Shown here piece after piece: positions 25,912 through 41,917 of a stretch of DNA of 63,053 nt. Numbering within the stretch: position 1 is the first letter of the stretch; each line of letters starts with the position of its first letter. The notes beneath the pieces were generated by a model, which was given only the letters and a program-made list of their open reading frames with translations, ran no database searches and had not been told where the DNA came from. The translations under genes were made by a program, and so were the position numbers. The stretch spans positions 1 to 63,053 of the forward strand of contig JAZLLM010000031.1 in NCBI GenBank assembly GCA_045598145.1. Reading direction: 5' to 3'. Source of the stretch: Bacilli bacterium (GTDB lineage: Bacteria > Bacillota_I > Bacilli_A > ML615J-28 > CAG-698).

Positions 25912-26598
25912 ATGAGTAAAATTATTGGTTTAGAAAAATTTTCCTTAGTAGATTATGAAGGAAAAATGGCTTGTACTATTTTCTTTAGTAAATGCAATTT
26001 TAGATGTCCTTTTTGTCACAACTCTCACTTAATTGATGAATGTGGTGATGAATACACCTTAGATGAAATTTATGATTTTTTAAATAGTAGAAAGAATAAA
26101 TTAGAAGCTGTAGTTATAAGTGGTGGTGAGCCAACATTATATGAAGGTTTAGAAGAATTTATTGATAATATTAAAAATATGGGTTATCTAATTAAATTAG
26201 ATACTAATGGTAGTAAACCAGATGCATTAAATACTATTATTAAAAAGATAGATTATATAGCTATGGATATAAAGAATGATGATGCTAATTATTTTAAAAC
26301 AATAGGAATTAGCAATGAAAAATATTTAGATAATGTTCATAAATCTATTGAATTAATAATGAATAGCGGAATAAAATATGAATTTAGGACTACCTTAGTT
26401 AATGAGTTCCATACAGAAGAATCAATTAAAAATTTAGGTGCAATGATTAAAGGTGCAGACAAATTATATTTACAAAAATTCTTTGATAGAGAGACTTGTA
26501 TTATGCGTGACTTGCATGAAGTAAGTAAAGAGGACGCTTTAAAATATAAAGATTTCTTAAAAGATTATGTAAAAAGTGTTGAACTAAGATCGTATTAA
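25912..26598 (+). CDS. nrdG: anaerobic ribonucleoside-triphosphate reductase activating protein (radical SAM)
   Basis: SLVDYEGK, CNFRCPFCHN, ISGGEPTL, KLDTNGS, YEFRTT. Confidence 0.82.
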   Translation: MSKIIGLEKFSLVDYEGKMACTIFFSKCNFRCPFCHNSHLIDECGDEYTLDEIYDFLNSRKNKLEAVVISGGEPTLYEGLEEFIDNIKNMGYLIKLDTNGSKPDALNTIIKKIDYIAMDIKNDDANYFKTIGISNEKYLDNVHKSIELIMNSGIKYEFRTTLVNEFHTEESIKNLGAMIKGADKLYLQKFFDRETCIMRDLHEVSKEDALKYKDFLKDYVKSVELRSY

Positions 26599-26658
26599 CA
26601 AAATTACTTTACTATTGTTAACTTTCATGCTATAATATAAATATAGAGAGAATATATT

Positions 26659-26916
26659 ATGGCTAAAGAAGTAAAAATAATTAGTGAAGAAGAAATCATT
26701 GAAAGACTTAAATGCTTAATGGATAATAAGCAAAAGATTCATATAACTATTGATACAGGTAGAAGAAGAATTGATAATGCAGAATGTGTGATTGTTGGTT
26801 TATATAATCATTTTTTAATTGTGGAAACAATGGTAAAACATTACAAGGAAACATTAACTTTTAAAATAGTTGATATAAAAATTGGATATGTAAAAATATT
26901 GGAATTAGGATTATAA
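26659..26916 (+). CDS. veg: Veg-family protein
   Basis: 85 aa; 'GRRR...IVGLYNHFLIVE...TF...DI' pattern; own extended -10 (TGcTATAAT) upstream. Confidence 0.65.
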   Translation: MAKEVKIISEEEIIERLKCLMDNKQKIHITIDTGRRRIDNAECVIVGLYNHFLIVETMVKHYKETLTFKIVDIKIGYVKILELGL

Positions 26917-26933
26917 TCTTAATTCCTTTTTTT
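26901..26933 (+). terminator. terminator after veg
   Basis: GGAATTAGGATT-at-AATCTTAATTCC followed by T7. Confidence 0.75.
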
Positions 26934-27043
26934 GCATAGGAAATATTCGCTTAATTATAAATAATATATTCGTATATGTAAAATATATTTTTGTTAGAAA
27001 TTATTTCTTTTTATCTTACAAGTTTCAAAAGTTTAAAATATCG

Positions 27044-27072
27044 TTGCTTTTTGTAAAATTTTCTTGTATAAT
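27044..27072 (+). promoter_or_regulatory. sigma-A promoter of the ABC/nuclease operon
   Basis: TTGCTT-17 nt-TATAAT. Confidence 0.6.
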
Positions 27073-27093
27073 ATATATGGTTAATAATACACT

Positions 27094-27111
27094 TATAACA
27101 ATATTGTTATA
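27094..27111. promoter_or_regulatory. 18-bp perfect palindrome, candidate operator
   Basis: TATAACAATATTGTTATA lies between the -10 box and the GGAGG RBS. Confidence 0.45.
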
Positions 27112-27128
27112 TTGCTATGGAGGTTTAT

Positions 27129-27548
27129 ATGAAAATTATTAATATGACAAAAAACATAACATCATTATTGGGATCATTATTAATTGTTTTAGCTGGTTTG
27201 GTGTTTGTTATTGTGACCGACCTTAAAATTAGAATTGGCTCTGGATGGTTGTTTTTTGCTATAATCTTCTCATTCGGAAGTGGTTTATTATTTTTATTAG
27301 CTGAAAGCTTTAAACATAAACCAACGGCTTTCTATTGTATGAAGTCAGGAGGGTTCTTGTTATCAGTTGGATATATTGTTTTTGGTTTTGTTTTTAAAAA
27401 TTCTGAATTCTGTAAGAATATAAAATTTGAATATGAATCTACTAGAGATTTTATCACAATCTTCACAATAATATTTGCTATTATATGTTGTGTTGTACAA
27501 TTAGCAAATTTAGTTATTAATATTATCTTTAAAGTTGAAGATATTTAG
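27129..27548 (+). CDS. hypothetical 4-TM membrane protein
   Basis: Four hydrophobic segments; GGAGG at 27119-27123 supports ATG 27129. Confidence 0.75.
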   Translation: MKIINMTKNITSLLGSLLIVLAGLVFVIVTDLKIRIGSGWLFFAIIFSFGSGLLFLLAESFKHKPTAFYCMKSGGFLLSVGYIVFGFVFKNSEFCKNIKFEYESTRDFITIFTIIFAIICCVVQLANLVINIIFKVEDI

Positions 27549-27558
27549 GTAGCGATTG

Positions 27559-28317
27559 ATGTTTGATATACAAAAGGCAAGTTTATGGAAGAGAATGTCA
27601 GCTTTCCTGTTTGATTTCATAGTGCTACTTATATTAGCGGTTGGTTCAGCGTTGTTGGTATCAGCAATTACAAAATATGATAAACACGTTGACGAACTTC
27701 AAGAGCGCTATGATTATTATTCATCAACATATGGAGTGTCATTCGATATTTCAAGCGAAGATATAGAAAAATTAGATGAAGAGGAAAAAGCTAAATATGA
27801 AGCAGCCTCAGAAGCTATAAACGAAGATAATGAATTTAAAAGAAATTATTCATTAGTGATAAATCTTACTATAGTTATAACTAGCATAGGATTACTAATG
27901 GGTACTTTGATTGTTGAATTCATTGTTCCCATTTTTTTGCATAATGGGCAAACAATTGGTAAAAAGTGCTTTGGACTAGGAGTTGTAAAACAAAACTGTG
28001 TTAAGATAAGCAATATCCAATTATTTGTAAGAACTATTTTAGGAAAATACACAATTGAAATTATGATTCCCGCAATCCTAATTTTGATGTTTATATTAGG
28101 TAAATTAAGTGGTTTTGGAGTTTTATTATTTATTGGTCTTTCAATATTCCAAATTATATTGATTTTCTTTACAAGATTTAAAACACCAATTCATGATATA
28201 TTTGCATTCACAGTAGTGGTTGATATGCCAAGTCAAATGATTTATGATAACGAAGAGGAATTGATTAAAGCAAAGAATAATGTTCATTCCAAATTGGTAT
28301 CAAAAGAAACTTACTAG
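27559..28317 (+). CDS. RDD-family membrane protein
   Basis: ASLWKRMSAFLFD, GQTIGKKCFGLGVV and IHDIFAFTVVV motifs. Confidence 0.88.
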   Translation: MFDIQKASLWKRMSAFLFDFIVLLILAVGSALLVSAITKYDKHVDELQERYDYYSSTYGVSFDISSEDIEKLDEEEKAKYEAASEAINEDNEFKRNYSLVINLTIVITSIGLLMGTLIVEFIVPIFLHNGQTIGKKCFGLGVVKQNCVKISNIQLFVRTILGKYTIEIMIPAILILMFILGKLSGFGVLLFIGLSIFQIILIFFTRFKTPIHDIFAFTVVVDMPSQMIYDNEEELIKAKNNVHSKLVSKETY

Positions 28318-28340
28318 ATAAAACGAAAGGATAAAAAAAT

Positions 28341-29459
28341 ATGAAAGTAGTTTTAGAAAACTTAACAAAAATCTTTCCAAGTAGAAATAAGGATGGTAAA
28401 GAAGTTCATGCTGTTAGTGATTTTACATTTGAAATTCCAGATGGAAAATTAATTGGTTTATTAGGACCTTCAGGATGTGGTAAGAGTACAACTCTATATA
28501 TGATTAGTGGTCTACAAAAACCAACATCAGGAAAAATTTATTTTGGTGATGATGATGTAACTGAGCTTACTCCAGAAAACAGAGGAGTTGGATTAGTGTT
28601 CCAAAATTATGCATTATATCCACATATGACAGTTAAACAAAATATCTTATTCCCACTTCAAAATTTAAAGGGTGAAGATAAATTACCAAAAGATATAATG
28701 ATTGAAAGAGCTTATGAAGCTGCAAGATTAGTGCAAATTGATGAATTGATGGATCGTAGACCTAGTGAGTTATCTGGTGGTCAACAACAACGTGTTGCTA
28801 TTGCGAGAGCTTTAGTAAAGATGCCTAGAGTATTATTACTTGACGAACCACTATCTAACCTAGATGCTAGATTAAGACTTCAAACAAGAGAAGAAATCAA
28901 AAGAATTCAAAGAGAGACTGGTATTACAACAATATTTGTAACACATGACCAAGAAGAAGCAATGAGTATCTCTGATATGATTGTAGTTATGAAATTAGGT
29001 GTTGTTCAACAAATTGGTAAACCTCAAGAAGTTTATGAAAGCCCAGTTAACTTGTTTGTAGCTAAGTTCTTAGGTACACCTCCAATCAACGTATTTGAAG
29101 GTAAAGTAGAAAACGGAATGATTTACATTGGTGAAGATGCAGTAATTCAAGCAAATGGTATTGCTGATCAACCAGTATATGTAGGAATTAGACCAGAAGG
29201 ATTTATCTTAAATCCAAATGGAAAATTAAATAATGAATTAAGCAACGTTGAAGTTATGGGTAGAGACGTATCAATTGTTAGTACTAACCCTGCATCATTA
29301 AATCCAATTATTAGATCAATAATTGATGCAGATCAAGGTAAGACACTTGATGTAACAAACAAGACTGTTAGATTTGATGTTAAACCAAATAAGATCTTTA
29401 TCTTCAATAAAGAAACTGAAGAAAGAATTTATTTTGGTAATCAAAAACCAGGAGAATAA
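28341..29459 (+). CDS. ABC transporter ATP-binding protein (MalK/UgpC type)
   Basis: GPSGCGKST, VFQNYALYPHM, LSGGQQQR, DEPLSNLDA, C-terminal TOBE-like region. Confidence 0.95.
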   Translation: MKVVLENLTKIFPSRNKDGKEVHAVSDFTFEIPDGKLIGLLGPSGCGKSTTLYMISGLQKPTSGKIYFGDDDVTELTPENRGVGLVFQNYALYPHMTVKQNILFPLQNLKGEDKLPKDIMIERAYEAARLVQIDELMDRRPSELSGGQQQRVAIARALVKMPRVLLLDEPLSNLDARLRLQTREEIKRIQRETGITTIFVTHDQEEAMSISDMIVVMKLGVVQQIGKPQEVYESPVNLFVAKFLGTPPINVFEGKVENGMIYIGEDAVIQANGIADQPVYVGIRPEGFILNPNGKLNNELSNVEVMGRDVSIVSTNPASLNPIIRSIIDADQGKTLDVTNKTVRFDVKPNKIFIFNKETEERIYFGNQKPGE

Positions 29460-29461
29460 AA

Positions 29462-30433
29462 ATGGTTGATAGTAAACAACAATGGAAGGCGTGGCTATAT
29501 TTAGCGCCTGCAATTGTACTATTATTAATGTTTACCGTATGGCCAATATTTAATACCATTAGAATGGCATTCTTAGAAGGCTTTAATTATGCGGCGTCAA
29601 ATGGTGGTGCAACTTTCTCATTTGGTTTAGCTAACTTTTTTGGTAAGTGGGATCCGGAAATTGAAGATTGGGCAATACAAGGTGTGTTTAATTATAGTAA
29701 ATTTGGTGATTGTATTAAAAACACTTGTTTATTAACAGTTATAACAGTTCCTGTTTCCACATTCTTAGCTTTAATTATAGCTGTATGTTTGAATTCAATT
29801 AAAAGATTTAGTAAAGCATTACAAACAATTTTCTTCTTACCATATGTAACAAATTCAATTGCTATTGGTATGGTATTTGCAGCTATGTTTAATATTATCG
29901 GTTTACAAAAATCTGGTTTATGTGATACAGCTGGTATAGTTAATAATGTAATAGAATTCTTTGGTGGAAAAAGAATTAATTGGATAAATTATGGTTCATC
30001 ATACTGGGCTAATATGACAGTAATGATTATTTACATTGTATGGAATGCATTACCATTCAAAATCTTAATTTTGCTTGGCGGTCTTCAAAGTGTAAATAAA
30101 CAATATTATGATGCCGCAAAGGTTGATGGAACTAGTAGAGTAAGAACTTTCTTTAGAATTACTTGTCCTTTACTTTCTCCTATGATTATTTATGTTGTTA
30201 TAACAGGTTTCATTGGTGGATTTAAAGAATATACAAGTATTGTAGGTATTTTTGGTGAAGGTTTAGGACCTGCTGATGAAGCAAATCGTTTAATAACAAT
30301 GGTAGGTTTCATTTACAGAGATATAGGAAATCATGAAGGAAGAGCAAGTGCAGCTGCATTAGTTTTATTCTTTATTATTTTAGCGGTAACACTTCTTAAC
30401 TTGTACGTAAGCAAGAAGAAAGTACAATATTAG
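29462..30433 (+). CDS. CUT1 ABC transporter permease (UgpA/MalF type)
   Basis: Multiple TM segments; EAA loop YYDAAKVDG. Confidence 0.92.
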   Translation: MVDSKQQWKAWLYLAPAIVLLLMFTVWPIFNTIRMAFLEGFNYAASNGGATFSFGLANFFGKWDPEIEDWAIQGVFNYSKFGDCIKNTCLLTVITVPVSTFLALIIAVCLNSIKRFSKALQTIFFLPYVTNSIAIGMVFAAMFNIIGLQKSGLCDTAGIVNNVIEFFGGKRINWINYGSSYWANMTVMIIYIVWNALPFKILILLGGLQSVNKQYYDAAKVDGTSRVRTFFRITCPLLSPMIIYVVITGFIGGFKEYTSIVGIFGEGLGPADEANRLITMVGFIYRDIGNHEGRASAAALVLFFIILAVTLLNLYVSKKKVQY

Positions 30434-30444
30434 GAGGTAAAATT

Positions 30445-31341
30445 ATGGCTAAAGAAATTAATGCAACTATGGTTGAAAAAGATATGCAAAAGGTAACTGC
30501 TAGACAAAGAGTAGTTAAAATTTGCATACAAGTATTGTTATATTTGTTCTTAGGAATAATGGCTGTAATTATTTTATTCCCATTCTATTGGATGATAATT
30601 TCATCATTAAAGACAGTGGATGAATACTTCTTAAATATTCCAACATTATGGCCTAAGGAAATAAAATTCATGAACTATGTAAATGCATTTAATACTGCTA
30701 ATTTAGGAACATTGTTTGTAAATACAATGTATGTAGGTATTGTATCCACAATCCTATCTTTAGTAATTACCGTATTATCTGCTTTCGCATTTGCAAGATT
30801 AGAATTCAAAGGTAAAAACATTATGTTTGCTGGTTTACTTGCAACTATGATGATTCCTGGTGAATTGTTTACAATTACAAATTATGTAACTGTTTCTAAA
30901 CTAGGATGGAATAATTCATTCTTTGTATTGATATTCCCATTCTTAGTTAGTGTATTTTACATTTATTTGCTTAGACAAAACTTTTTACAAATTCCAGATG
31001 AACTTTATTATGCAGCTAAAGTTGATGGAACTAGTGATATAAAATATTTATGGAAAGTAATGGTTCCTTTGTCACTACCAACCTTAATATCTATTACGAT
31101 ATTAAAGATGATGGGTGCTTGGAACTCATACATTTGGCCAAGATTGGTTGCTAATGATCAGGCGCATAGAATGATTACTAATGGTCTTAGAAATGCTTTT
31201 ACTGAAGTTTCAGGAAATCGTACAGATGTACCATTACAAATGGCAGCTATTGCTATAGTTTCATTTCCACTATTCTTAGTATATGTTTTCTTAAGAAAAT
31301 ATATTATGAAGGGTGTAAGTAGAAGCGGTATTAAAGGATAA
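30445..31341 (+). CDS. CUT1 ABC transporter permease (UgpE/MalG type)
   Basis: FPFYWMIISSLKT, IPDELYYAAKVDG, WNSYIWP. Confidence 0.92.
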   Translation: MAKEINATMVEKDMQKVTARQRVVKICIQVLLYLFLGIMAVIILFPFYWMIISSLKTVDEYFLNIPTLWPKEIKFMNYVNAFNTANLGTLFVNTMYVGIVSTILSLVITVLSAFAFARLEFKGKNIMFAGLLATMMIPGELFTITNYVTVSKLGWNNSFFVLIFPFLVSVFYIYLLRQNFLQIPDELYYAAKVDGTSDIKYLWKVMVPLSLPTLISITILKMMGAWNSYIWPRLVANDQAHRMITNGLRNAFTEVSGNRTDVPLQMAAIAIVSFPLFLVYVFLRKYIMKGVSRSGIKG

Positions 31342-31377
31342 AAATTAAAAATAAAAATAGATTAAATAGGAGGAAAG

Positions 31378-32898
31378 ATGAAAAAATTTAGTTTAAGTTT
31401 TATTTTAATCTTAGTTATGTTTGTAACTTTTGGTTTAACTGCATGTACAGGACCAAGCCAAGGTGATGGATCTTACATTACTGTTGAAGAAATGATTGAA
31501 AATGCTTCAAAATTAAGTTATCAATCTCAAAGCCAAGAACAAGTTGAAAAGGGAACTCCTAACTTCAATGTTCCTGATGGTGGATATGATGGAAGTAAAG
31601 TAACAATTAAGTTCTATCATACAATGGGCTCTAACTTAAGAGACGTTTTAACTGCTTATATTGCTGATTTCAATGAATTATATCCAAACATCGCAATCGA
31701 AGAAGAACAAGTTGGTTCTTATGATGATGTTAGAAATCAAGTAAGTACTGAAATTACTGTTGGTGGACAACCTAACATTGCATATTGTTATCCAGACCAT
31801 GTTGCATTATATAACTTAGCAGGTGCTGTTGCAACTTTAGATAGTTTAATTGATAGTACTGCTACTGTTACACGTGCTGATGGTTCAACTGAAGTTTTAG
31901 GTTTAACTGCTGATCAAAAAGCTGACTTCATTGAAGGTTATTATTCAGAAGGTCAACAATTTGGTGATGGCTTAATGTATACTATGCCATTCTCTAAATC
32001 AACTGAAGTTTTATATTACAATAAGACATTCTTTGATGCTAACAATATTCCAGTTCCAGATCATTGGTTTACTACTGATGAAAATGATAAGACTTCTATG
32101 GAAGCTGTATGTAAAGCTATTAAAGCTATTGATCCTACATGTATTCCACTAGGATATGACTCAGAAGCTAACTGGTTCATCACAATGTGCGAACAATGTG
32201 GTTCTGCATATACAAGTGCTACTGGTAAACATTATTTATTCAATAATGCTACTAATAGAACATTCATTAAGATCTTTAGAGATTGGTTCCAACAAGACTT
32301 AATCACTACTCAAAAATTATATGGTGCTTATACATCTGGTTTATTTGTAGCTGAAACAGGAACTAAATCATATATGAGCATTGGTTCAAGTGCTGGTGCT
32401 ACACATCAAAGACCTTCTAAGGTTGATGGTGCTTATCCATTTGAAGTAGGAATTGCATCAATTCCTCAAATGAGCAAAACTTATAGTAGAGTTATTTCTC
32501 AAGGACCAAGTGTATGTATCTTTAAGAAAGACAACCCACAAGAAGTTATTGCTTCATGGTTATTCGTTAAATTCTTAACTACATCAGTAGAATTCCAAGC
32601 TGAATTCTCAATGGCTTCTGGATATGTTCCAGTATTAAAGAGTGTTGCAACTAATGAAATCTATGCTGACTTCATTAATAATGCTGATGGTTATGATTAT
32701 ATCGCTGCATTAAGTGCTAAAGTTTGCTTAGAACAAGAAAAAGCATACTACACTTCTCCAGCATTCAATGGTTCTTCAACTGCTCGTGATCAAGTAGGCT
32801 TATTATTATCAGCTGCTTTATCAAGAGAAGGCGATACAGATAAAGTTATTAAAGATGTATTCGCTGAAGCTTTAGAAGAATGTAATTTTGCAAATTAA
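31378..32898 (+). CDS. ABC transporter substrate-binding lipoprotein (UgpB-like)
   Basis: Lipobox LTAC; IKFYHTMG, MPFSKSTEVLYYNK, WLFVKFLT and SGYVPV motifs. Confidence 0.9.
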   Translation: MKKFSLSFILILVMFVTFGLTACTGPSQGDGSYITVEEMIENASKLSYQSQSQEQVEKGTPNFNVPDGGYDGSKVTIKFYHTMGSNLRDVLTAYIADFNELYPNIAIEEEQVGSYDDVRNQVSTEITVGGQPNIAYCYPDHVALYNLAGAVATLDSLIDSTATVTRADGSTEVLGLTADQKADFIEGYYSEGQQFGDGLMYTMPFSKSTEVLYYNKTFFDANNIPVPDHWFTTDENDKTSMEAVCKAIKAIDPTCIPLGYDSEANWFITMCEQCGSAYTSATGKHYLFNNATNRTFIKIFRDWFQQDLITTQKLYGAYTSGLFVAETGTKSYMSIGSSAGATHQRPSKVDGAYPFEVGIASIPQMSKTYSRVISQGPSVCIFKKDNPQEVIASWLFVKFLTTSVEFQAEFSMASGYVPVLKSVATNEIYADFINNADGYDYIAALSAKVCLEQEKAYYTSPAFNGSSTARDQVGLLLSAALSREGDTDKVIKDVFAEALEECNFAN

Positions 32899-32924
32899 TT
32901 TATAATTATAAAAGAGAATAAAAA

Positions 32925-34331
32925 ATGAAGAGATGTCTTAAAGCATTCTCAACAATTCTAGTTTTGGTTTTAATGCTATTTGTATTTGCATGTGATAAAC
33001 CAACTCCTACACCAGAACCTATTAAATCAAGTGGTGAACAAATTAATAGTGATGGAAATAAACCAGTTAAAAGTGAAGGTACTTTAACACCTGAACCAAT
33101 AACTGACCCAGTAGATTATGCTAGCGAAGTTAAATTTAGCGAAGCTAGTGGAACTAAATGGGCTAAGGTTACTGTTAAGACTTATGTAGATGGTGACACA
33201 ACTCACTTTTATATTGATGATCCTAATATGAATGGTGGAGTTATAAAAGCTAGATATTTAGGAATTAATACACCTGAATCTACAGGTAAAATTGAAGAAT
33301 ATGGAAAAGCTGCTTCCACATTTACTAAAACTAAATTAATGGAAGCAACTTCCATTATCGTCGAAAGTGACGATGGTATTTGGAATGCTGACTCAACAGG
33401 TGGAAGATACCTTGTATGGGTTTGGTATAGAACAAATGAAAGTGAAGAATATCGTAATTTAAATATTGAAATTTTACAAGAAGGTTTAGCTATTGCATCA
33501 AGTTCAGCAAATAATAGATATGGTGAAACTTGTGTAAAAGCTATTAACCAAGCGAAAGCTTTAAAGCTTAAAGTATATTCTGGAGAAAAAGATCCTGATT
33601 TCTATTATGGTGAAGCTCAAGAAATCACTTTAAATGAACTTAGAACAAATATCGAAGAATATGTTAATACTTATGTAGCTTTTGAAGCTGTAGTAGTAAG
33701 AGAAAATAGTGAAACTGTATACGTAGAAGAGTTCGATCCTGAAACAAATATGTATAACGGTATCGCTGTATATTATGGATTTAGTGCATCGGGTGATGTA
33801 TTAAAGATATTGGAAGTTGGAAACAGGGTTAGAATAGTTGGCTCAGTTCAATATTATGAAGCTGGCGGAACTTATCAAATCTCTGGTTTGAAGTATCGTG
33901 CAATGAAACCTAAGGACCCTAGCAATGTACAAAAGATTGGTGAAGGTTATAGTGCAAGCTATACTTTAACTGATGCTGATACATTTGTTAATGGTAAAGT
34001 AGAAGTGGAAACAGATGAAGAACTTAAAGAATTTAGCTATGCTAATCTTGCAATGAATTCAACTATTTCAATGGAAAACTTACAAGTTAAGAGTGTTTAT
34101 ACAACTAATAATGAAGATAGTTCTTCAAAAGGTGCTATGACATTAACTTGTGAAGTAGATGGCATTACAGTAAAAGTGAGAACTGTTGTTATGTATGATG
34201 ATAACAAACAACTTATTACTGAAGATGCATTTTTAAATAAGAACATTAATGTTAAGGGATTAGTAGATTATTTTAATGGTGAATACCAAATAAAAATATT
34301 TACTATGAACGATGTAACATTTAATGGATAG
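32925..34331 (+). CDS. thermonuclease (SNase) family lipoprotein with C-terminal OB-fold-like domains
   Basis: Lipobox VFAC; YVDGDT, ARYLGINTPES, GGRYLVWVW and NIEILQEGLA SNase motifs; C-terminal 'YVAFEAVV...VGNRVRIVGSVQYY' OB-like region. Confidence 0.88.
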   Translation: MKRCLKAFSTILVLVLMLFVFACDKPTPTPEPIKSSGEQINSDGNKPVKSEGTLTPEPITDPVDYASEVKFSEASGTKWAKVTVKTYVDGDTTHFYIDDPNMNGGVIKARYLGINTPESTGKIEEYGKAASTFTKTKLMEATSIIVESDDGIWNADSTGGRYLVWVWYRTNESEEYRNLNIEILQEGLAIASSSANNRYGETCVKAINQAKALKLKVYSGEKDPDFYYGEAQEITLNELRTNIEEYVNTYVAFEAVVVRENSETVYVEEFDPETNMYNGIAVYYGFSASGDVLKILEVGNRVRIVGSVQYYEAGGTYQISGLKYRAMKPKDPSNVQKIGEGYSASYTLTDADTFVNGKVEVETDEELKEFSYANLAMNSTISMENLQVKSVYTTNNEDSSSKGAMTLTCEVDGITVKVRTVVMYDDNKQLITEDAFLNKNINVKGLVDYFNGEYQIKIFTMNDVTFNG

Positions 34332-34363
34332 AAAAACTAAAAAATTTGCAAAGGAGAAATTAA

Positions 34364-37300
34364 ATGAAGAAAAAGATTTTTAGTTTATTACTTTTAGTGC
34401 TTTGCTTATTTGCAGTTGTTGCTTGTGGTGGTAAGGATCCTAAACCTGAACCAGAACCACCAGTAAAAAAGACTGCTTTAGAAAAAGCAAAAGACTATTT
34501 ATACGCAATGTATAAAGCAACTGATGGAGCTGCTACTCCATCTGATTACCAATTAACTGCTGTACTTAAAGTTGGTGACGATGAGTATACAGTTGAATGG
34601 AAAGTTAACGTAACAACTGGTGATGCTTCACAAGTACAAGTTACATTAAGTGAAGATGGTAAGACAGTTACTGTTGACGTTGACGAACAAACTGCTATAG
34701 ATTTAGCATATGAATTAACTGCTGTTATTAAAGATAAAGAAGGCAAGACAATTGAACAAAAGTTAACTCATACAGTTCCAAAGTTTAAGGAATTAACTTG
34801 GGCTGAATATGTTGGCAAAGCTGCTGGCGAAAGCTTAGTAGTTAAAGGTATTGTTACTGCTTTAATTAATGATAACTGCTTATATATGCAAGATGCTGAT
34901 GGTGGATATTATCTATATAATATGAAATCATCTATCGCTGAATCAGGCGTTAAAGTTGGTAATACAATCAGAGCTACTGGTTCTAAAGATATTTATAGTG
35001 GAACTCATGAAGTAAAAGATGCTGTTATTGAAATTTTAGATACAACTACATCTGTTCCTGCAGCTGTAGATTACACTGAAATTTACAAGAACGCTACATC
35101 ATTAAAAGATGCTGCATTAGCTGAAAAACAAGCTTTATTAGTTACTATTAAAGGCGTTGAAATCACTGGCGAAGATGCTGGTAGCGGATACTACAAATTC
35201 AAATTAGGTAATTTAGAATCTTATATCAGAATTTCTAGTTCAGTATGTCCATTATCTAAAGCTGACCAAGACACTTTCAAAGCTGCTCATGCTAGTCACT
35301 TTGGTTGGACAGGAAATGCAACAGGTGTTATCTGTGTATATGATGGTGCTTTCTATCTAACTCCTGTTACTGTTGATGCATTTGAATATGTTTCATTACC
35401 AGATTTAGATGATGCTGGTATGGTTGCATTTGAAAAGAACGCTTTAACATTCGCTGAAGAAATCGATGCTGCTGGCGAAATCGCATTAGCTGCTAAAGGT
35501 TCTGCTTATGAAGCTGTTGCTATTACATGGGCTTCTAACAGTGAATTAGCTGTTGTTTCTGAAGGCAAATTAGTTGTTGCTAGCTTACCAGATGATGAAA
35601 CTGAAATTAAGATTACTGCTACTTTAACAAGTGGTGATGCTACTGATACTAAAGAATTCACAGTTAAATTAGTTCCTTCAAGAGCTGTTATGACTGTTGC
35701 TGAAGTATTAGATGAAATGGCTAACTATGAAGCTTCTCAAATTTCTACTACTAAATATTCAGTTGGTGGAGTTGTTACTTCTTCAAGTTACAATGATAGC
35801 TATAAATCATACACTATTTGGCTAAAAGATGGCGATACTGAAAAAGCATTCGAATTATATTCTGCTGTTATGGCTGAAGATAAAGATGAATATCATGCAG
35901 AAAATGCTTTAGTTGGTATGTATGTTGAATGTACTGGTTACTTACAATTATACGTAGCATCAAGTGGAGCTAAGACATTTGAAATGCCTTACTTAGCTGC
36001 TAACAAGAGCCCTAATGGACAAGCTACAAGCCCTACTATTACTGTAGTTGCTAAATCATATGATGTAGCTGGCGTTATCGCTTCTATGGCTGGATTCGCT
36101 GAAGCTGGTGAAATTGGTACTGAATTCGTATTAGTTACAGGTGTTGTTTCATCTTCATCTTATAACTCTAAATATGGATCATACACAATTTGGCTAACTG
36201 ATGGCACAAATGAAAAAGCATTCGAATTATATTCTGTTGCTTTTGCTAAAGGATTTGATGATTCAGCATTCCAAGCTGATGATGCATTAAAAGGATATAC
36301 AGTAACTTGTCAAGGTTACTTACAATTATATGTAAGTTCAAGCGGTGCTAAGACATATGAAATGCCTTATTTAGCTGCTGCTAAGAGCCCTACTAAAGCT
36401 GACTTTACACCATCTATTACTGCTGCTTTCAAAGAAGAACAACAAGGTGGAGAAGAAGGTTTTTACATTGCAAATGATGAAGATGCTGCAAATATCGAAG
36501 CTTTAGGTGCTGATTATATCGTTGACGTACAAATCGTTGGTGAAGGCTTCTACTATGTTGGCGAAACTGAATTATATATCAATGATACAGTATTTGCTAC
36601 AATAGAAGATGCATTAGCATTTGCTCAACCTGGACAAATCATTTATGTTTGTGCTGGTTTATATGCAGGCGATATTACAATTGAAGGTAATGGCATTACA
36701 ATTGTTGGTGCTAACTTCAATACTGTTTTAGATAAAGATTCTGAATTCACAGCTGGTGATGATACAGTTAATACTATTATTAATGGTGCTATCACAATTG
36801 CTGAAGGTTCTAAGAATATTACTCTTAAAGGTTTAGTATTAGAAGGTCAAGTTACTTTAGCTGGTGTTGCTGGATTTAACGCTTCTAATATCGTATTTAG
36901 TGATATTAAGTTTGAAGAAACATTTGACGGATGCTTAAGAGTTTCTGGTGCTTCAAGTGATATCGTTATTAAGAACATGTACTTAGATGGAAATTGTTCT
37001 CCACGTGGTATCCATATCAATGCTACAGTTACTAACTTTGCATTATATGAATCAGGAACATTATCTACTAATACTGGATTATATGACTTCTTTAGATTTG
37101 GTCAAGGCAATATTGCTACTGCTGCTGGCACTGTAATTATGAAAGATTGCTTCGTATTAAATACATTAGAATCTGGTTTAATGGATAGAGTTCCTGCTGC
37201 TGATAAGTACATTGTTGAAAACAACTACTTCGAAAAAGTTCCTGCTGCTATTTATTGGAGAACAGGAATTGCTGATGGAGCTGCTATTGAATATGATGTA

Positions 37301-39823
37301 ATCGGTAATACATTTGTTGATTGCGGTACTTTAGCTGGTGACTGGGATGTTATAGTTATGACTACTGGTGCTAATACAAAGACTGAAGTTCATTACAATA
37401 TCTTCAAAGATAACTTTAAATCTAACCCAGGTACTAACACTGACTATGTAATTAAAGTAAGAACTGATGCTGGAGTTATCAACTGTGCTGATAACTTCAT
37501 TAGTGAAGATACTAAAGATAAGAACTTAAATGCTAAAGAATTAACATTACTTGAATCTGAAGAAAAAGCTAGAGAATTATATGAAAAATATGTTAACGAT
37601 TCAGTAAGTGCTGAAGTAATCAAAGCTTCTAATGCTAAGGTTATCGTTACTGCTGATGTAGCTGAATTAGCTGCTGATGCTGAATATGAATTCGCTGGTG
37701 TTAAATATGTTGTAGGTAAGACTGCATTCGCTACAATCGATGCTGCTTTAGCTGCTGCAACTGATGATGCTGTAATTTACTTATTCCCTGGAACTTATCT
37801 ATTAACTGCTACTGGAACTGCAAAAGTTACATTAGTTGGTTCAAATTATAATGTAGATGGTTATGCTGAAAGAGTTACACCTTCTATCATTACATTAGGC
37901 GGAAATGTTGCAATTGCTAACCCTAAATTTATCGCTAATGGTATTGACTTTGTAGCTGTTGAAACTGCAAATATTAACTTCTTATTCCCAGCTACTGGTT
38001 GTGAAGAATTCGAAGTTTCTTATTGCTCAATTTATTCAACAAACCCTACTACAAGTTATCAAATTAATACATTCTACAGAGATAGTAACGATACTACTCC
38101 TCATACAGTAAAATTCACACACAATAACTTTACACAAGTTGACCAATTTGTTGCTTGGGTTGCTACTGCTACTGAATTTGTATTTGAAAGCAATCATGTA
38201 GAATTAGAAGGATTTGGAAGAATCGGTTCTATTGCTTATAACACTGCTTTATTTAGAATAAGACAATTAGATGCTACTTATGTAATTAATGTATCTATTA
38301 GAAATAACTATTTCCATGGTGCTTTAATTGGATGTCCATACTTATTTGAATTCTCTACTGGAGAAGGATCAAAAGCTGTTGTAAGTTACAACGTATTTGA
38401 TGGTGTTGGACCTACATTCATTTTCAATAATTCTACTTATGTTCAAGCTGAAATCACTGCTGAATATAACTTATTCAAAGATTGTGAAGCTGAATCATTT
38501 GGTGAAGAAGCTGAAAACGAAAAAGAAAGAGCTGCTGCTTGGAAAATTGAAGACTTATATGCTAAGTTAGACATCATCTGCCAATTATGGTGTGCAGACT
38601 TCTCTAAATGGGCTGTAAATGAAATTTCATCAATCGAAAAAGTTGACACTGCATCTATTAACTCAAGCGATATGGTTGATATGTTAAAGGATGAAGCTTT
38701 AACTGCTAAATGGTTATGGTTATATACTGGTTTATATGAAATCGCTGATGAAGATAAATTATATGACCCAGAAGATTCAGAAGCTTATGAATCTGCTAAA
38801 GGTTTCTATTTAGCTAACATTAATGGTTTCTTTAGTCAAACAGAACATACTGATACAAATTTAGGTACAGTAAGTTTCGATTTCTCTGATCCTGCAAATG
38901 TAAAAGCTGTTTTAGCTTACTTTGATGGTTCAATCGAACTAGTATTACCTGTAGCTGAAGAAGAAGAAAAAGAAGAAGTTGAAATCACTGATGGTGAACA
39001 AACTTTAACTATTAATTGTTTCGGATTTGGTTCAGATGATACTGATCCTGTTACTAACTATTTTAAAGCTTCTGCTCAAAAGACTATTTTATATTTAGCT
39101 AGTAAAGATTTATGTCAATTAGCTACAAGCACATATTCATATGCTTATAGATTAGGTATCAATCTTGAAGATGGTAAATATGTAGTAAAAGAAATCATTC
39201 CTGCTACTGGTACAGTTGATGTTCAAAATTTAAATTATGATTATATTTTATTCATCAATGGTAACTATGAAAAGAAAGCTATCTTTGATTTAATCGCTGT
39301 TGGAACTGAATTAACATTCGGTGCTGATCTTACTACTTTAGAAGAAGGCGTTGTTGAAGTAACTGTTAAGTTCAACTATGTTGCACCTGAAGAAGGCGCA
39401 GGTCAAGAAGGCGCAGGTCAAGAAGGCGGACAAGAAGATACAAGAACTGATTGGGAAAAATTAGTTGATGAATTCGTTGCTGATTATGCAAAGATGCCTG
39501 GTGGATCTAATGCTAGTGCTGCTGATAAGATCGACACTGCTTCTATCGATTCTGGTTCTATGTTAGCATTCTTAAATGATGCTGCTATGAGAGCTAAATG
39601 GGCTTGGTTAATTGAAGGTGTTTATGAAGCTGCTGGCAAACCTGAAGATGCAGAAGATCCAGCTACAACTGAAACTTTCGAAACTTCTAAAGGTTTCTAT
39701 TTAGCTAACATTTGCGGTTTCTTAACTAAGACTCAACATACAGATACTCATTTAAAAAATGTAAGTGTTGATTATTCAGACGCTACTGTATGGGCTGTTG
39801 TATGGGCTAAGAAAGCTAACTAA
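34364..39823 (+). CDS. giant (1819 aa) multidomain surface lipoprotein: OB-fold-like, Ig-like, beta-helix-like and repeated C-terminal domains
   Basis: Lipobox VVAC and AAGGAG RBS; 'VKGIVTA...LYMQDADGGYYLY...VKVGNTIRATG' OB-like domain; two 'FATI..AL......IY...G.Y' beta-helix starts; internal duplications. Confidence 0.85.
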   Translation: MKKKIFSLLLLVLCLFAVVACGGKDPKPEPEPPVKKTALEKAKDYLYAMYKATDGAATPSDYQLTAVLKVGDDEYTVEWKVNVTTGDASQVQVTLSEDGKTVTVDVDEQTAIDLAYELTAVIKDKEGKTIEQKLTHTVPKFKELTWAEYVGKAAGESLVVKGIVTALINDNCLYMQDADGGYYLYNMKSSIAESGVKVGNTIRATGSKDIYSGTHEVKDAVIEILDTTTSVPAAVDYTEIYKNATSLKDAALAEKQALLVTIKGVEITGEDAGSGYYKFKLGNLESYIRISSSVCPLSKADQDTFKAAHASHFGWTGNATGVICVYDGAFYLTPVTVDAFEYVSLPDLDDAGMVAFEKNALTFAEEIDAAGEIALAAKGSAYEAVAITWASNSELAVVSEGKLVVASLPDDETEIKITATLTSGDATDTKEFTVKLVPSRAVMTVAEVLDEMANYEASQISTTKYSVGGVVTSSSYNDSYKSYTIWLKDGDTEKAFELYSAVMAEDKDEYHAENALVGMYVECTGYLQLYVASSGAKTFEMPYLAANKSPNGQATSPTITVVAKSYDVAGVIASMAGFAEAGEIGTEFVLVTGVVSSSSYNSKYGSYTIWLTDGTNEKAFELYSVAFAKGFDDSAFQADDALKGYTVTCQGYLQLYVSSSGAKTYEMPYLAAAKSPTKADFTPSITAAFKEEQQGGEEGFYIANDEDAANIEALGADYIVDVQIVGEGFYYVGETELYINDTVFATIEDALAFAQPGQIIYVCAGLYAGDITIEGNGITIVGANFNTVLDKDSEFTAGDDTVNTIINGAITIAEGSKNITLKGLVLEGQVTLAGVAGFNASNIVFSDIKFEETFDGCLRVSGASSDIVIKNMYLDGNCSPRGIHINATVTNFALYESGTLSTNTGLYDFFRFGQGNIATAAGTVIMKDCFVLNTLESGLMDRVPAADKYIVENNYFEKVPAAIYWRTGIADGAAIEYDVIGNTFVDCGTLAGDWDVIVMTTGANTKTEVHYNIFKDNFKSNPGTNTDYVIKVRTDAGVINCADNFISEDTKDKNLNAKELTLLESEEKARELYEKYVNDSVSAEVIKASNAKVIVTADVAELAADAEYEFAGVKYVVGKTAFATIDAALAAATDDAVIYLFPGTYLLTATGTAKVTLVGSNYNVDGYAERVTPSIITLGGNVAIANPKFIANGIDFVAVETANINFLFPATGCEEFEVSYCSIYSTNPTTSYQINTFYRDSNDTTPHTVKFTHNNFTQVDQFVAWVATATEFVFESNHVELEGFGRIGSIAYNTALFRIRQLDATYVINVSIRNNYFHGALIGCPYLFEFSTGEGSKAVVSYNVFDGVGPTFIFNNSTYVQAEITAEYNLFKDCEAESFGEEAENEKERAAAWKIEDLYAKLDIICQLWCADFSKWAVNEISSIEKVDTASINSSDMVDMLKDEALTAKWLWLYTGLYEIADEDKLYDPEDSEAYESAKGFYLANINGFFSQTEHTDTNLGTVSFDFSDPANVKAVLAYFDGSIELVLPVAEEEEKEEVEITDGEQTLTINCFGFGSDDTDPVTNYFKASAQKTILYLASKDLCQLATSTYSYAYRLGINLEDGKYVVKEIIPATGTVDVQNLNYDYILFINGNYEKKAIFDLIAVGTELTFGADLTTLEEGVVEVTVKFNYVAPEEGAGQEGAGQEGGQEDTRTDWEKLVDEFVADYAKMPGGSNASAADKIDTASIDSGSMLAFLNDAAMRAKWAWLIEGVYEAAGKPEDAEDPATTETFETSKGFYLANICGFLTKTQHTDTHLKNVSVDYSDATVWAVVWAKKAN
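35690..36425 (+). repeat. tandem ~120-aa duplicated domain within the giant lipoprotein
   Basis: SSSYN..Y.SYTIWL.DG..EKAFELYS and GYLQLYV.SSGAKT.EMPYLAA.KSP each occur twice; DNA GAAAAAGCATTCGAATTATATTCTG is identical at 35840 and 36212. Confidence 0.9.
39390..39428 (+). repeat. 15-bp tandem repeat encoding an EGAGQ linker
   Basis: AAGAAGGCGCAGGTC twice plus a partial third copy. Confidence 0.8.
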
Positions 39824-39843
39824 TTTGTTAGTATAGACTATTT

Positions 39844-39878
39844 AAAAGGGTCTCACTTTAAAAGTGAGGCCTTTTCTT
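39844..39878 (+). terminator. terminator ending the ABC/nuclease operon
   Basis: AAAAGGGTCTCACTT-taa-AAGTGAGGCCTTTT. Confidence 0.8.
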
Positions 39879-39944
39879 AATGCCTATAACTTATGCTTTA
39901 TATTTAAGGCATTTTATGGTATAATTATTACAGGTAAAAAAATT

Positions 39945-41609
39945 ATGAGTAAAATAAAATTCTTTGGTCTAGGTGGACTAGGCGAAAATGGTAAAAATTT
40001 ATATGTATGTGAAGTTGATGAGAGCATCTTTATATTAGATGCTGGACTTAAATATCCAAGTGTGGACTTATTAGGTATTGATTCAATTTACCCATCATTA
40101 GAATATTTAGAAGAAAACAGTGAAAGAATAAAAGGTATTTTCTTAAGTCATGGCCATGAAGAAAATATTGGAGCTGTAGTTGAAGTAATTAAGAGATTTA
40201 ATATTAGTGTATTTGGCACTCATTTTACTATTTCATTAGTTGAAAAGACAATTGAAGAACAAGGGCTAGTGAAAGAACATTATAGGTTATATCGTATAAA
40301 TGAAGATAAAAAACTAAAATTTGGTAAAGTTAGTGTTGAATTTTATAATGTAAGCCATAGTATACCAGAAGCTATAAATATAGCTATAATAACTCCTGAT
40401 GGAGCTATTGTATATGCACCAGATTTTTCTTTTGATGTAAATAGTGATAAAAAATATCATATTTCTTTTGGTAGGATTAATGATATAGCTAAATATGGGG
40501 TATTAGCTTTAGCTAGTGAGAGTTTAGGCACAAGTAATCTAAATAGAACTAACAATAATTATGAATTGGATTATTACGTTACAAATACATTAAAGAAAAA
40601 AGGAAGATGCTTTTTCACAATTTATTCTTATGATTTAGAAAAGATTCAAAGAGTTATTAATCTTGCTTTAAACATGGGAAGAAGAATTGCTTTAATAGGC
40701 ATTAAGACGCAAAGAATAGTAAATATAGCAACTCAAACAGGATACTTAAAAGTACATGAAGATAAATTAGTTACTTTGAAATTTAGAAATGAAAAAATAA
40801 CAAATGAAGATGATGATTTAGCTATTATTGTAACAGGGGCAAGACATGAACCATTCTTTATGATGCAAAGAATGTGTAATGGTCAAGATAGATTATTACA
40901 AGTTAAAAAAGGTGATAATCTATTAATGCTAACTCCACCAATAACAGGTTGTGAAAGAATTCAATCAAGAATGCTTGCTAATGTATTAGAATCTGGGGTA
41001 ATAGTTACTGATGTAAATAAAGATGCAATAAGAAGCACTCACGCTAGTCCTGAAAATTTAAAGATGCTATATGGAATGCTAAACCCTAAATATATAATTC
41101 CTATTATTGGTGAATATAGACACCAATATATGCAAAAAAATATAGCAATAGAAGTTGGTTATAAAAATGAAGATATAATATTGTTAGATAATGGACAAGT
41201 TGCTTATTTTGAAAATGGTGTATTAAAAGATACTAAAGAAAAAGTTAAATGTGGTGATGTATTAGTTGATGGAAGTATTATAGGAGACATTAACGAAGTA
41301 GTATTAAAAGATAGAGAGTTAATGAGCGAAGAAGGCATTATCTTTGTAACTACAGTAATTGATACTAAGCATAGAAGTTTATTAGGTGGGCCTGAAATTG
41401 TAAGTAAAGGCTTTAGTATATCAGATGAAAATAAATTATTTTCTGAATTAAAAGAATTAGTTACAAATGAAATGTATTTATATTTAAATAAACGAAATTT
41501 AGATTTAAGTAAAGCAAATGAATATTTAAGAAAAAAACTTAATGATTATCTAACTAATAATTATAGTAAACATCCAATTATTATTCCTTCTTTTATTGAT
41601 ATTAAATAA
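39945..41609 (+). CDS. rnjB: ribonuclease J, J2-type (degenerate metal-binding motif)
   Basis: GLGGLGENGKN; HGHEENIG in place of HxHxDH (as in B. subtilis J2); VLVDG...VLKDRELMSEEG. Start at ATG 39945. Confidence 0.85.
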   Translation: MSKIKFFGLGGLGENGKNLYVCEVDESIFILDAGLKYPSVDLLGIDSIYPSLEYLEENSERIKGIFLSHGHEENIGAVVEVIKRFNISVFGTHFTISLVEKTIEEQGLVKEHYRLYRINEDKKLKFGKVSVEFYNVSHSIPEAINIAIITPDGAIVYAPDFSFDVNSDKKYHISFGRINDIAKYGVLALASESLGTSNLNRTNNNYELDYYVTNTLKKKGRCFFTIYSYDLEKIQRVINLALNMGRRIALIGIKTQRIVNIATQTGYLKVHEDKLVTLKFRNEKITNEDDDLAIIVTGARHEPFFMMQRMCNGQDRLLQVKKGDNLLMLTPPITGCERIQSRMLANVLESGVIVTDVNKDAIRSTHASPENLKMLYGMLNPKYIIPIIGEYRHQYMQKNIAIEVGYKNEDIILLDNGQVAYFENGVLKDTKEKVKCGDVLVDGSIIGDINEVVLKDRELMSEEGIIFVTTVIDTKHRSLLGGPEIVSKGFSISDENKLFSELKELVTNEMYLYLNKRNLDLSKANEYLRKKLNDYLTNNYSKHPIIIPSFIDIK

Positions 41610-41639
41610 AAAAAGTAGTATAATAATTAAGAATAAAAA

Positions 41640-41886
41640 AGCAATGATAAAAGAATTCTATTATTTATTCTTATTTAGAGAAAAGTGGGTTGGTGAAACA
41701 CTTTAAGATGATAATAGATGCTACTTTTTAGCTAAAGATGAAAGTCTTCGTTTCTTGGCGTTAACAAGATAATTAAGAGTAAAAACATATTGCATAAATA
41801 TCTGTTTTTAAAATAGGATGGTACCGCGATAAAAAAATTGATTCGTTCCTATATAAAAATTATTATATTTTTATATAGGATTTTTT
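41640..41886 (+). promoter_or_regulatory. T-box riboswitch (Ala) upstream of alaS
   Basis: AGAGA and GGTGAAA stem-I elements, GCT (Ala) specifier at 41720-41722, T-box AATAGGATGGTACCGCG at ~41812-41828, terminator TCCTATATAAAAAT...ATTTTTATATAGGA followed by a T run. Confidence 0.9.
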
Positions 41887-41917
41887 ATTTCCTATATAAA
41901 TAAAACTGGAGGAGAAT

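Follow-up and report, generated by a model that had tools for sequence, protein, structure and literature searches.

What does an ATP-binding cassette (ABC) importer carry when its genes run, on one strand and almost without gaps, into those of a surface nuclease and of a giant lipoprotein? The question is raised by an eight-gene cluster in a 63,053-nucleotide stretch of a Bacilli bacterium genome (contig JAZLLM010000031.1 of assembly GCA_045598145.1, positions 1 to 63,053; hereafter the window). A first-pass annotation, made from the letters alone, had read this cluster as a system for harvesting extracellular nucleic acid. Our in silico follow-up supports that reading, with corrections as to which parts belong to the system, as the linkage of the genes, the OB folds of the surface proteins and the nearest relative of the binding protein are all favourable to it. 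On balance, we think it probable that the cluster is a cell-surface system that feeds on extracellular nucleic acid and imports the fragments. If this is right, an automatic pipeline would wrongly name the importer a transporter of sugars or glycerol phosphate. The uptake of phosphorylated nucleic-acid fragments by bacteria is poorly understood.

The open reading frame (ORF) scan found eight co-oriented ORFs on the + strand (27117-39823) between two terminator hairpins. In 5' to 3' order they are separated by 7, 23, 2, 11, 36, 26 and 32 nt, so that the close spacing read before (gaps under 40 nt) holds with measured gaps of 2-36 nt. Pfam and NCBIfam searches likewise bore out the domain content assigned earlier to the RDD protein, the ATPase, the permeases, the binding protein and the staphylococcal-nuclease (SNase) lipoprotein. 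The genes are as follows.

27117-27548, + strand: 143-aa protein with four hydrophobic segments, a lineage-restricted accessory gene; no Pfam match.
27556-28317, + strand: RDD-family membrane protein of 253 aa with a TTG start, an accessory gene of one subclade; PF06271.
28341-29459, + strand: ABC ATPase of the UgpC/MalK type, 372 aa; PF00005 (E 1.4e-36), with partial OB_MalK and CysA_C matches.
29462-30433, + strand: ABC permease 1, UgpA/MalF-like, 323 aa; BPD_transp_1 (E 1.1e-19).
30445-31341, + strand: ABC permease 2, UgpE/MalG-like, 298 aa; BPD_transp_1 (E 5.4e-17).
31378-32898, + strand: substrate-binding lipoprotein, 506 aa, whose nearest solved relative is the Thermus dinucleotide (U3G)-binding protein; SBP_bac_8 (E 1.5e-26), also SBP_bac_1.
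32925-34331, + strand: SNase lipoprotein, 468 aa; PF00565 (E 5.1e-11).
34364-39823, + strand: giant lipoprotein, 1819 aa, in which Pfam names only aBig_2.

The last three products carry lipoprotein signals, with the lipobox cysteine at Cys23 in the binding protein, Cys23 in the nuclease and Cys21 in the giant. These three lipoproteins and the ABC importer are inherited together across an order and beyond. Our order sample comprised 40 relatives from two families and 27 genera, or 41 genomes with the window's own (G000), and in each of the 40 relatives we compared the ~20 kb surrounding the nuclease gene by tblastn with the window proteins. Homologues of the SNase and of the binding protein were each present in 41/41 genomes. 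The series ATPase, permease, permease, binding protein and nuclease lay on one strand with its order kept in 37 of the 40 relatives, the other three being cut by contig ends, and the next ORF was a lipoprotein of ~430-1500 aa in 36 of the 38 loci with downstream sequence. Outside the order, a class sample of 150 scored genomes, which included genomes of 0.5-0.9 Mb and a TGA-reading family, added, by a hand count, 38 genomes of eight families in which the binding-protein gene immediately precedes that of the nuclease. In one more family, all 11 of 11 genomes had both genes 4.5-8.7 kb apart on one strand, and the small TGA-reading genomes of this sample (family f21) gave no binding-protein match at E 1e-25. 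The first-pass annotation had made its reading depend on the linkage of nuclease and transporter being conserved in relatives, and conserved it is, within the order and in the 38 class-sample genomes.

How old is this association? When GTDB species genomes were scanned with the nuclease, 133 loci proved to encode a relative, and the best 80 of these (48-62% identity; L053-L132) are referred to here as close loci. They span a G+C content of 0.30-0.61 (median 0.50) and carry varied submitter labels, mostly Clostridia, and this version of the module is therefore common to other, higher-GC gut lineages. Within the window's own order, identity to the window's nuclease is mostly 26-40%. An old exchange of the cluster between lineages is likely from these sequence comparisons. 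In most relatives (loci L018-L048) the block follows dnaX-ybaB-recR and a small gene of ~80 aa with two transmembrane segments, a placement that points to vertical descent from the ancestor of the order. The window's copy is instead preceded by tgt and a radical-SAM gene, and so it has moved. The operon has a total G+C content of 0.324, compared with 0.285 elsewhere. A recent horizontal transfer of the cluster was considered and is unsupported, as third-position G+C of the operon genes (0.145-0.23) matches that of neighbouring genes (0.12-0.16).

Next, we asked what the surface proteins of the cluster are. The nuclease consists of two parts.

33174-33587, + strand: SNase nuclease domain, residues 84-221 (PF00565).
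33618-34328, + strand: OB pair of the SNase lipoprotein, residues 232-468 (profile match to the OB pair of the giant).

A profile of the nuclease family matched staphylococcal nuclease at E 3e-22. The catalytic and metal residues of that enzyme are D21, R35, D40, T41, E43 and R87, in a numbering that agrees with the chain index. The columns of D19, D21, R35, T41, E43 and R87 correspond to D89, D91, R110, T116, E118 and R161 of the window's protein, and are invariant in 39 sequences. As judged by this alignment, the nuclease keeps the catalytic residues of staphylococcal nuclease. Its C-terminal half (232-468) gave only sub-threshold Pfam OB matches, and direct BLAST of the nuclease against the giant gave no match; the homology is seen by profile comparison only, in which hhalign aligned this half to residues 142-344 of the giant with a probability of 98.7% (E 4.3e-16, 196 columns). 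The nuclease and the next lipoprotein thus have a common tandem OB-fold module, and the extra OB-like domains that had been proposed for the SNase lipoprotein are confirmed for its C-terminal half.

SNase-domain proteins also occur apart from the cluster. A second, shorter SNase lipoprotein (303 aa) is encoded on contig C7 of this genome (L136:2779-3690), and no transporter was detected beside it in the 9 kb covered. Several other families of the class sample have two SNase-domain ORFs on one strand, ~4-5 kb apart (for example G141:C1:881783-887444, G107:C1:431189-437154 and G123:C1:569651-576104), and a second nuclease may be encoded downstream of the cluster in those families.

The giant lipoprotein falls into a part that belongs to the system and a part that does not.

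34364-36433, + strand: system-specific N-terminal part, as delimited by the structure model and by hidden Markov models (HMMs) that recur next to the nuclease.
34469-34783, + strand: N-domain.
34784-35398, + strand: OB pair.
35399-35683, + strand: aBig_2/Ig-like domain.
35684-36433, + strand: two OB-like repeats.
36461-39823, + strand: C-terminal ~1100 residues, with modules common to other surface proteins.
36461-38548, + strand: two probable right-handed beta-helix regions (weak evidence).
38549-39820, + strand: repeated C-terminal domains.

Residues 1-700 were modelled from 30 homologues. In blocks of ten residues the predicted local distance difference test (pLDDT) averaged 88-98 over residues 41-440 and was lower over 441-650. 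In this predicted model, residues 142-235 matched the OB folds of AspRS/AsnRS, HIN, YgiW, RPA and CST (Z 10.6-11.7, root-mean-square deviation (rmsd) ~2.1 over 83-90 residues), and residues 440-562 matched the OB fold of LysRS as well as Teb1 (Z 9-10.5, LysRS 10.5). The giant thus contains, at the level of the predicted fold, the five-stranded barrel of known OB proteins, and its matches to AspRS/AsnRS, RPA and CST are of the nucleic-acid-binding type, in line with what had been expected of it. A second OB barrel is suggested at about residues 255-345 by secondary structure and by the alignment of the pair, and a tRNA_anti-codon match in Pfam stayed below threshold (E 0.0015). Residues 347-439, the aBig_2-like domain, matched a domain of the arabinanase AbnA (Z 12.1, 27% identity).

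Downstream of the nuclease in relatives, only this N-terminal part of ~700 residues recurs. HMMs of the giant, cut from the alignment to which seven of the 38 tested loci had supplied rows, matched ORFs downstream of the nuclease at 32 loci for the OB pair, 35 for aBig, 18 for the OB repeats and 11 for the N-terminal domain, and some of these lipoproteins hold up to eight OB units. The beta-helix and C-terminal modules match unrelated large ORFs in three relatives (G014, G004 and G001) and paralogues in this genome. Because the N-terminal part recurs and the rest matches unrelated proteins, the giant is a conserved multi-OB lipoprotein with grafted surface modules. The several OB-like domains once ascribed to the 1819-aa lipoprotein are therefore retained for residues ~142-690 of the model, and residues 700-1819 are not OB folds. 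The proposed role as a scaffold of the system is narrowed in the same way: a large OB lipoprotein is conserved across the order, but only the first ~700 residues of the giant belong to it. For residues 700-1395, weak matches to NosD (E 0.0024) and Pect-lyase_RHGA_epim (E 0.024) hint at a right-handed beta-helix, and the Atlas feature neighbours of the giant carry Beta_helix/NosD. This half is probably a lineage-specific adhesion or glycan-contact module that was grafted on. The far end of the window holds related material: positions 57753-58142 match residues 1539-1668 of the giant, and 58830-59180 match residues 1694-1813. Two large lipoprotein-like ORFs with collagen-type and Listeria-Bacteroides repeats lie there (57072-59264 and 59281-61746), the first of which shares the C-terminal modules of the giant.

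The length and the modules of the large lipoprotein vary greatly between species, as they do in adhesins, and mycoplasma surface nucleases degrade neutrophil traps according to the available text of a review (PMC9740415). The surface proteins might then serve mainly for adhesion to, or remodelling of, extracellular-DNA matrices, as in biofilm, mucus or an escape from host DNA traps, with import secondary or absent. We consider this very unlikely. It leaves unexplained why the genes are so strictly linked to those of a complete ABC importer with its own binding protein, and why nanoRNase genes come after the cluster in the sister family (see below).

The nature of the solute was approached through the binding lipoprotein. 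In a single-sequence search of the PDB (phmmer), its best match was 7c0v (E 9.1e-16, 60.8 bits), the next family followed at 1.1e-5, and UgpB proteins appeared near 1e-4 with 22-25 bits. With the family profile, 7c0f scored 1.2e-44 (156 bits) and Escherichia coli UgpB 1.3e-38 (136 bits). An AlphaFold model made from 33 orthologues (pLDDT 92.9) had 7c0l as its best fold match (Z 36.1, rmsd 3.0, 380 residues aligned), an entry titled 'dinucleotide-binding protein of ABC transporter endogenously bound to uridylyl-3'-5'-phospho-guanosine' (U3G). Other fold matches were Mycobacterium tuberculosis UgpB (Z 35.4) and sugar binders at about 32, many of them at Z 30-33. The closest solved relative by sequence and by fold is thus the 7C0F series, with a margin that is clear by single sequence only. 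This relative is the one solute-binding protein known to us that has been solved with a dinucleotide in its pocket. In line with the earlier reading, the binding protein is thus closest to a dinucleotide binder and not to a sugar binder.

The pocket itself appears to be kept. We took the mutated residues of the 7C0x entries to be ligand contacts, going by the entry titles, and placed them in the profile alignment (position equals chain index minus 2). Thermus Y56, F79, N81, S127, Y224, T240, Y246 and Q274 correspond to Y115, Y138, D140, S208, Y318, S337, H343 and Q375 of the window's protein. Of the eight mutated positions, five count as identical and three as conservative replacements. Seven of the eight are invariant in 33/33 orthologues; at the last, H343 in the window's protein, 23 orthologues have Y and 10 have H. 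In three paralogous binding proteins the seven are likewise retained, with W at the remaining position.

The same comparisons bring in the main rival of a nucleotide importer, namely a Ugp-type importer of glycerol-3-phosphate or glycerophosphodiesters, or a phosphate-scavenging system, in which the nuclease and the OB proteins free organic phosphate outside the cell and the solute is not a nucleotide. For the four transporter parts, NCBIfam ranks UgpC, UgpA, UgpE and UgpB at or near the top, the UgpB model is matched by 33/33 binding-protein orthologues (best E 4e-23), and E. coli and M. tuberculosis UgpB come close to the dinucleotide binder in the profile and fold searches above. However, all Ugp scores of the transporter parts are far under the curated cut-offs: the ATPase reaches 345 bits against UgpC, its best NCBIfam match, where 432 are required, and the binding protein reaches 35.8 bits against the UgpB equivalog NF008211, where 411 are required. 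The cluster has no glycerophosphodiesterase gene, its conserved partners being a nuclease and OB-fold proteins, and the single-sequence search prefers the dinucleotide binder (60.8 bits) over the UgpB proteins. As the binding-protein family lies between UgpB and the dinucleotide binder, sequence alone leaves a Ugp-type importer standing, as an explanation that we judge unlikely.

A plain sugar importer has to be weighed at this point as well. SBP_bac_1, SBP_bac_8 and the permease families are families of sugar importers, many sugar-binding proteins match the model at Z 30-33, and the giant contributes its beta-helix leads at residues 700-1395 and an aBig_2-like domain that resembles a domain of a GH43 arabinanase (Z 12.1). 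Under this explanation the transporter would be an ordinary CUT1 oligosaccharide importer, the beta-helix of the giant would act on or bind a glycan, and the nuclease would be a separate neighbour. Yet the linkage of nuclease and transporter over 27 genera and beyond is unlike that of a chance neighbour, domain searches found no glycoside hydrolase or sugar kinase gene in the cluster, and only the OB and aBig parts of the giant recur beside the nuclease. The one carbohydrate-like part is the beta-helix, and as this does not recur with the system, we hold a plain sugar importer to be very improbable.

Two further comparisons concern the binding protein. A complex prediction for its residues 71-506 with the OB pair of the giant (residues 141-345) gave a score of 0.02 (mark 0.32), which weighs neither way. 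The NCBIfam model lipo_P68 matched 28/33 orthologues weakly (best E 5.5e-18). P68 was considered as a bridge to mycoplasma operons, but gene context did not confirm it: in genome G078 the P68 genes lie ~10 kb or more from the SNase match, and true lipo_P68 members occur only in one family of TGA-reading genomes of 0.7-0.8 Mb (5 of the 150 class-sample genomes).

A paralogous locus in the same genome shows the binding protein and the OB pair together once more. On contig C14 (L133:548-4705, - strand) lie two permease genes, the gene of a 507-aa sister binding lipoprotein that keeps the same pocket residues, and that of a 254-aa lipoprotein (L133:548-1312) that is a single OB pair (E 1.1e-23); neither an ATPase nor a nuclease gene is present at this locus. 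The same arrangement occurs in G007 (L134) and G022 (L135). Stand-alone OB-pair lipoproteins of ~245 aa are very common in public genomes and metagenomes, with 7,363 clusters at E 1e-5 or better out of 7,925 candidates. Among the 120 matches listed, every name shown was 'hypothetical protein', and 13 had a precomputed PF01336.

What would become of imported fragments? At 10/16 loci of the sister family, the gene of the large lipoprotein is followed on its own strand by NrnA-like DHH/DHHA1 genes, a tandem pair in eight cases, and five of the six loci that lack them have a contig end within 3.6 kb. A DHH gene lies a few kb downstream in 15/80 close loci, on the opposite strand in 14. In this genome two NrnA-like DHH/DHHA1 genes, followed by surE, are found on contig C92 (L137:5731-8361, - strand). 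SurE belongs to a 5'/3'-nucleotidase family, and the C92 genes could form the last, cytoplasmic stage in the use of imported fragments that bear a 3'-phosphate. Two genes of nucleotide synthesis stay below their cut-offs in most of the order sample: purM scored over its cut-off in 6/41 order-sample genomes (35 below) and pyrB in 9/41 (32 below). Neither gene was found in this genome, which is 93% complete, and both profiles score in all 14 control genomes.

Taken together, these observations are consistent with the following mechanism. The OB modules would hold DNA or RNA at the membrane, and the SNase domain would cut the held nucleic acid into mono-, di- and short oligonucleotides. The binding lipoprotein would capture dinucleotides or similar short phosphodiesters for import by the UgpC/A/E-like transporter, and cytoplasmic NrnA-type nanoRNases would finish their breakdown to nucleotides and nucleosides for salvage. 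In this scheme we infer the ligand, the hand-off between the proteins, and the part played by NrnA and SurE.

Several points weigh against this mechanism. For the binding protein, the margin over UgpB is small both by profile (1.2e-44 against 1.3e-38) and by fold (Z 36.1 against 35.4), the U3G ligand of the 7C0x structures came bound from the expression host, and the Thermus protein is said to bind glycerophosphocholine as well. For the nuclease, N115, which most family members have, takes the place of staphylococcal D40 in the alignment, so that one metal ligand differs from staphylococcal nuclease; moreover, staphylococcal-type nucleases leave 3'-phosphates, and U3G has none. OB folds also bind oligosaccharides, we know of no nucleic-acid role for the OB neighbour YgiW, and the beta-helix half of the giant would suit a carbohydrate-active protein. 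The window holds no NrnA-like genes, so the nanoRNase genes of this genome are unlinked to the cluster, and the module is present also in the six to nine relatives that have purM or pyrB.

A bolder proposal, possible but doubtful in our own estimate, is that U3G-binding-protein-like binding lipoproteins and OB-pair lipoproteins form a widespread, unrecognised ABC route for di- and short oligonucleotides in gut Bacillota, with the OB-pair family as surface receptors that keep polynucleotide ready for the nuclease and hand fragments to the binding protein, and NrnA-type nanoRNases as the dedicated cytoplasmic end. If this proposal is true, the cluster would encode a dedicated bacterial importer for nucleic-acid fragments as food, and such an importer would account for the supply of phosphorylated precursors in mycoplasma-like, biosynthesis-poor bacteria. 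The module is found in 41/41 genomes of a gut order with small genomes, mostly below the purM and pyrB cut-offs, and among other gut lineages at least 133 species-level genomes carry a close version. If nucleic-acid import is its function, extracellular DNA and RNA would be an important source of nutrition for many gut bacteria not yet in culture.

The first two genes of the cluster are less widely shared. The first-pass annotation had counted both the RDD protein and the protein with four transmembrane segments as parts of the system; the former stands for one subclade, and the latter is a lineage-restricted accessory. The RDD assignment itself is secure (PF06271, E 2.8e-11, 44.3 bits against a gathering cut-off of 24.1). 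An RDD gene lies upstream of the ATPase gene in 5/40 relatives, those whose nuclease is 40-62% identical to the window's, and just upstream of it in 60/80 close loci, the remaining 20 beginning inside the cluster. As it is present in all 60 close loci whose sequence extends beyond the 5' end of the ATPase gene, the RDD gene is a fixed member of the operon in this subclade, where its product may act as an accessory membrane subunit. The 143-aa protein, whose four hydrophobic stretches were judged by eye, has homologues (tblastn) in 3/40 relatives and 1/80 close loci, and among the 56 close loci that have sufficient upstream sequence, a single one has a small ORF with at least three transmembrane segments before the RDD gene. 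By these counts, this gene is nearly genus-specific and a recent addition.

Two signals frame the cluster.

27044-27072, + strand: promoter-like site, TTGCTT-17-TATAAT (9/12 consensus match).
39845-39878, + strand: intrinsic-terminator-like hairpin and T-run, a 14-bp stem followed by TTTTCTT.

Of the one promoter and one terminator proposed before, the terminator is supported by folding, with -20.7 kcal/mol and z -2.9, and 0/200 shuffles folded equally well; this hairpin is absent from the hits of the consensus terminator scan. The promoter fares less well: a promoter is plausible at its site, but it is without statistical support in AT-rich DNA, as the window scan found 72 promoter-type matches where 88.3 were expected from shuffles, and so no excess. 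The terminator scan placed a hairpin at 26901-26926, which closes the preceding small gene, and found no + strand terminators inside the cluster. As Rfam gave no match at gathering thresholds over 26000-42000, the cluster has no known riboswitch leader. Housekeeping genes flank it, namely tgt and the radical-SAM gene on the upstream side and the genes of RNase J and alanyl-tRNA synthetase on the downstream side. Some 7 kb past the end of the cluster, a gene of the pseudouridine-5'-phosphate glycosidase family (Indigoidine_A, 47152-48075, - strand) adjoins a HIGH_NTase1 gene (45976-47145, - strand), a pair that may relate to RNA nucleoside salvage.

How does the cluster compare with known systems? 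Its binding protein has its best solved match in the Thermus thermophilus U3G-binding protein (PDB 7C0F series), with the eight mutated residues conserved or conservatively replaced. That protein, a dinucleotide-binding protein of an ABC transporter, is reportedly described by Chandravanshi, Samanta and Kanaujia (FEBS J, 2021). Identity is only ~20% over the structural alignment, and the Thermus protein has 406 aa compared with 506 here. Unlike it, the binding protein of the cluster is a lipoprotein, and it has a ~50-residue linker and additional loops. UgpBAEC, the sn-glycerol-3-phosphate/glycerophosphodiester importer, has the same architecture and provides the nearest named families for all four parts, and it carries a phosphodiester or phosphate-ester ligand, as is proposed here. 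It differs in that the scores lie far under the cut-offs and that the partners here are a nuclease and OB-fold proteins rather than a glycerophosphodiesterase. Bacillus subtilis YhcR likewise combines OB folds and an SNase domain at the cell surface, with a 5'-nucleotidase, in one large sortase-anchored nuclease that is not known to have a linked ABC importer; in our cluster, these functions lie in separate lipoproteins beside an importer.

A Mycoplasma pneumoniae study reportedly links the MPN133 lipoprotein to glycerol uptake, which would speak for the Ugp-type rival; our literature search did not return such a study. The search also found no paper that describes an OB-pair lipoprotein partner, an RDD member or a link to a dinucleotide-binding protein, and no description of RDD with ABC genes, or of an OB-fold lipoprotein with a thermonuclease and ABC genes, as an architecture.

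The closest parallel by gene content is found in mycoplasmas, for which the idea of an SNase lipoprotein working with an ABC importer is already published, and unproven. The operons to which the first-pass annotation had likened the cluster are indeed in print (PMC3585158, PMC9740415), in so far as the available text of the two papers covers them. In M. agalactiae the SNase MAG_5040, the P80 binding lipoprotein (MAG_5030) and three ABC genes (MAG_5050-5070) are co-transcribed, and import of nucleotide precursors was proposed, with the P80-type binding protein modelled as a sugar binder (PMC3585158, available text). A 2022 review extends the idea to several mycoplasmas and, in its available text, still calls it a hypothesis (PMC9740415). 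In these operons (MAG_5030-5070; mhp379, MPN133 and MG186 types), as in ours, a surface SNase lipoprotein stands adjacent to a solute-binding lipoprotein, an ATPase and two permeases of a 'sugar'-type ABC importer. This is a likeness by gene content and not an orthology assignment. In the mycoplasma operons the binding protein and nuclease precede the transporter, whereas here they follow it, and the available descriptions of those operons mention neither a multi-OB lipoprotein nor an RDD protein, nor a nuclease that is fused to an OB pair. The available text of a further paper assigns the mycoplasma nucleoside binder P48 to another ABC transporter locus as its binding component, and P80 appears there only as a loading control (PMC12892991). 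In M. bovis, the tandem DHH/DHHA1 pair Mbov_0327/0328 turns nanoRNA and cyclic dinucleotides into nucleoside monophosphates that are needed for growth (PMC7373297, available text). In the sister family, comparable tandem pairs lie behind the cluster, and a pair is present in this genome; the differences are that this pair is unlinked to the cluster and that the available text of PMC7373297 mentions no transporter. The present cluster thus offers three handles on the idea put forward for mycoplasmas: the residues of a dinucleotide pocket are kept, the OB-pair partner is retained even in a nuclease-free paralogous locus, and nanoRNase genes follow the cluster in the sister family.

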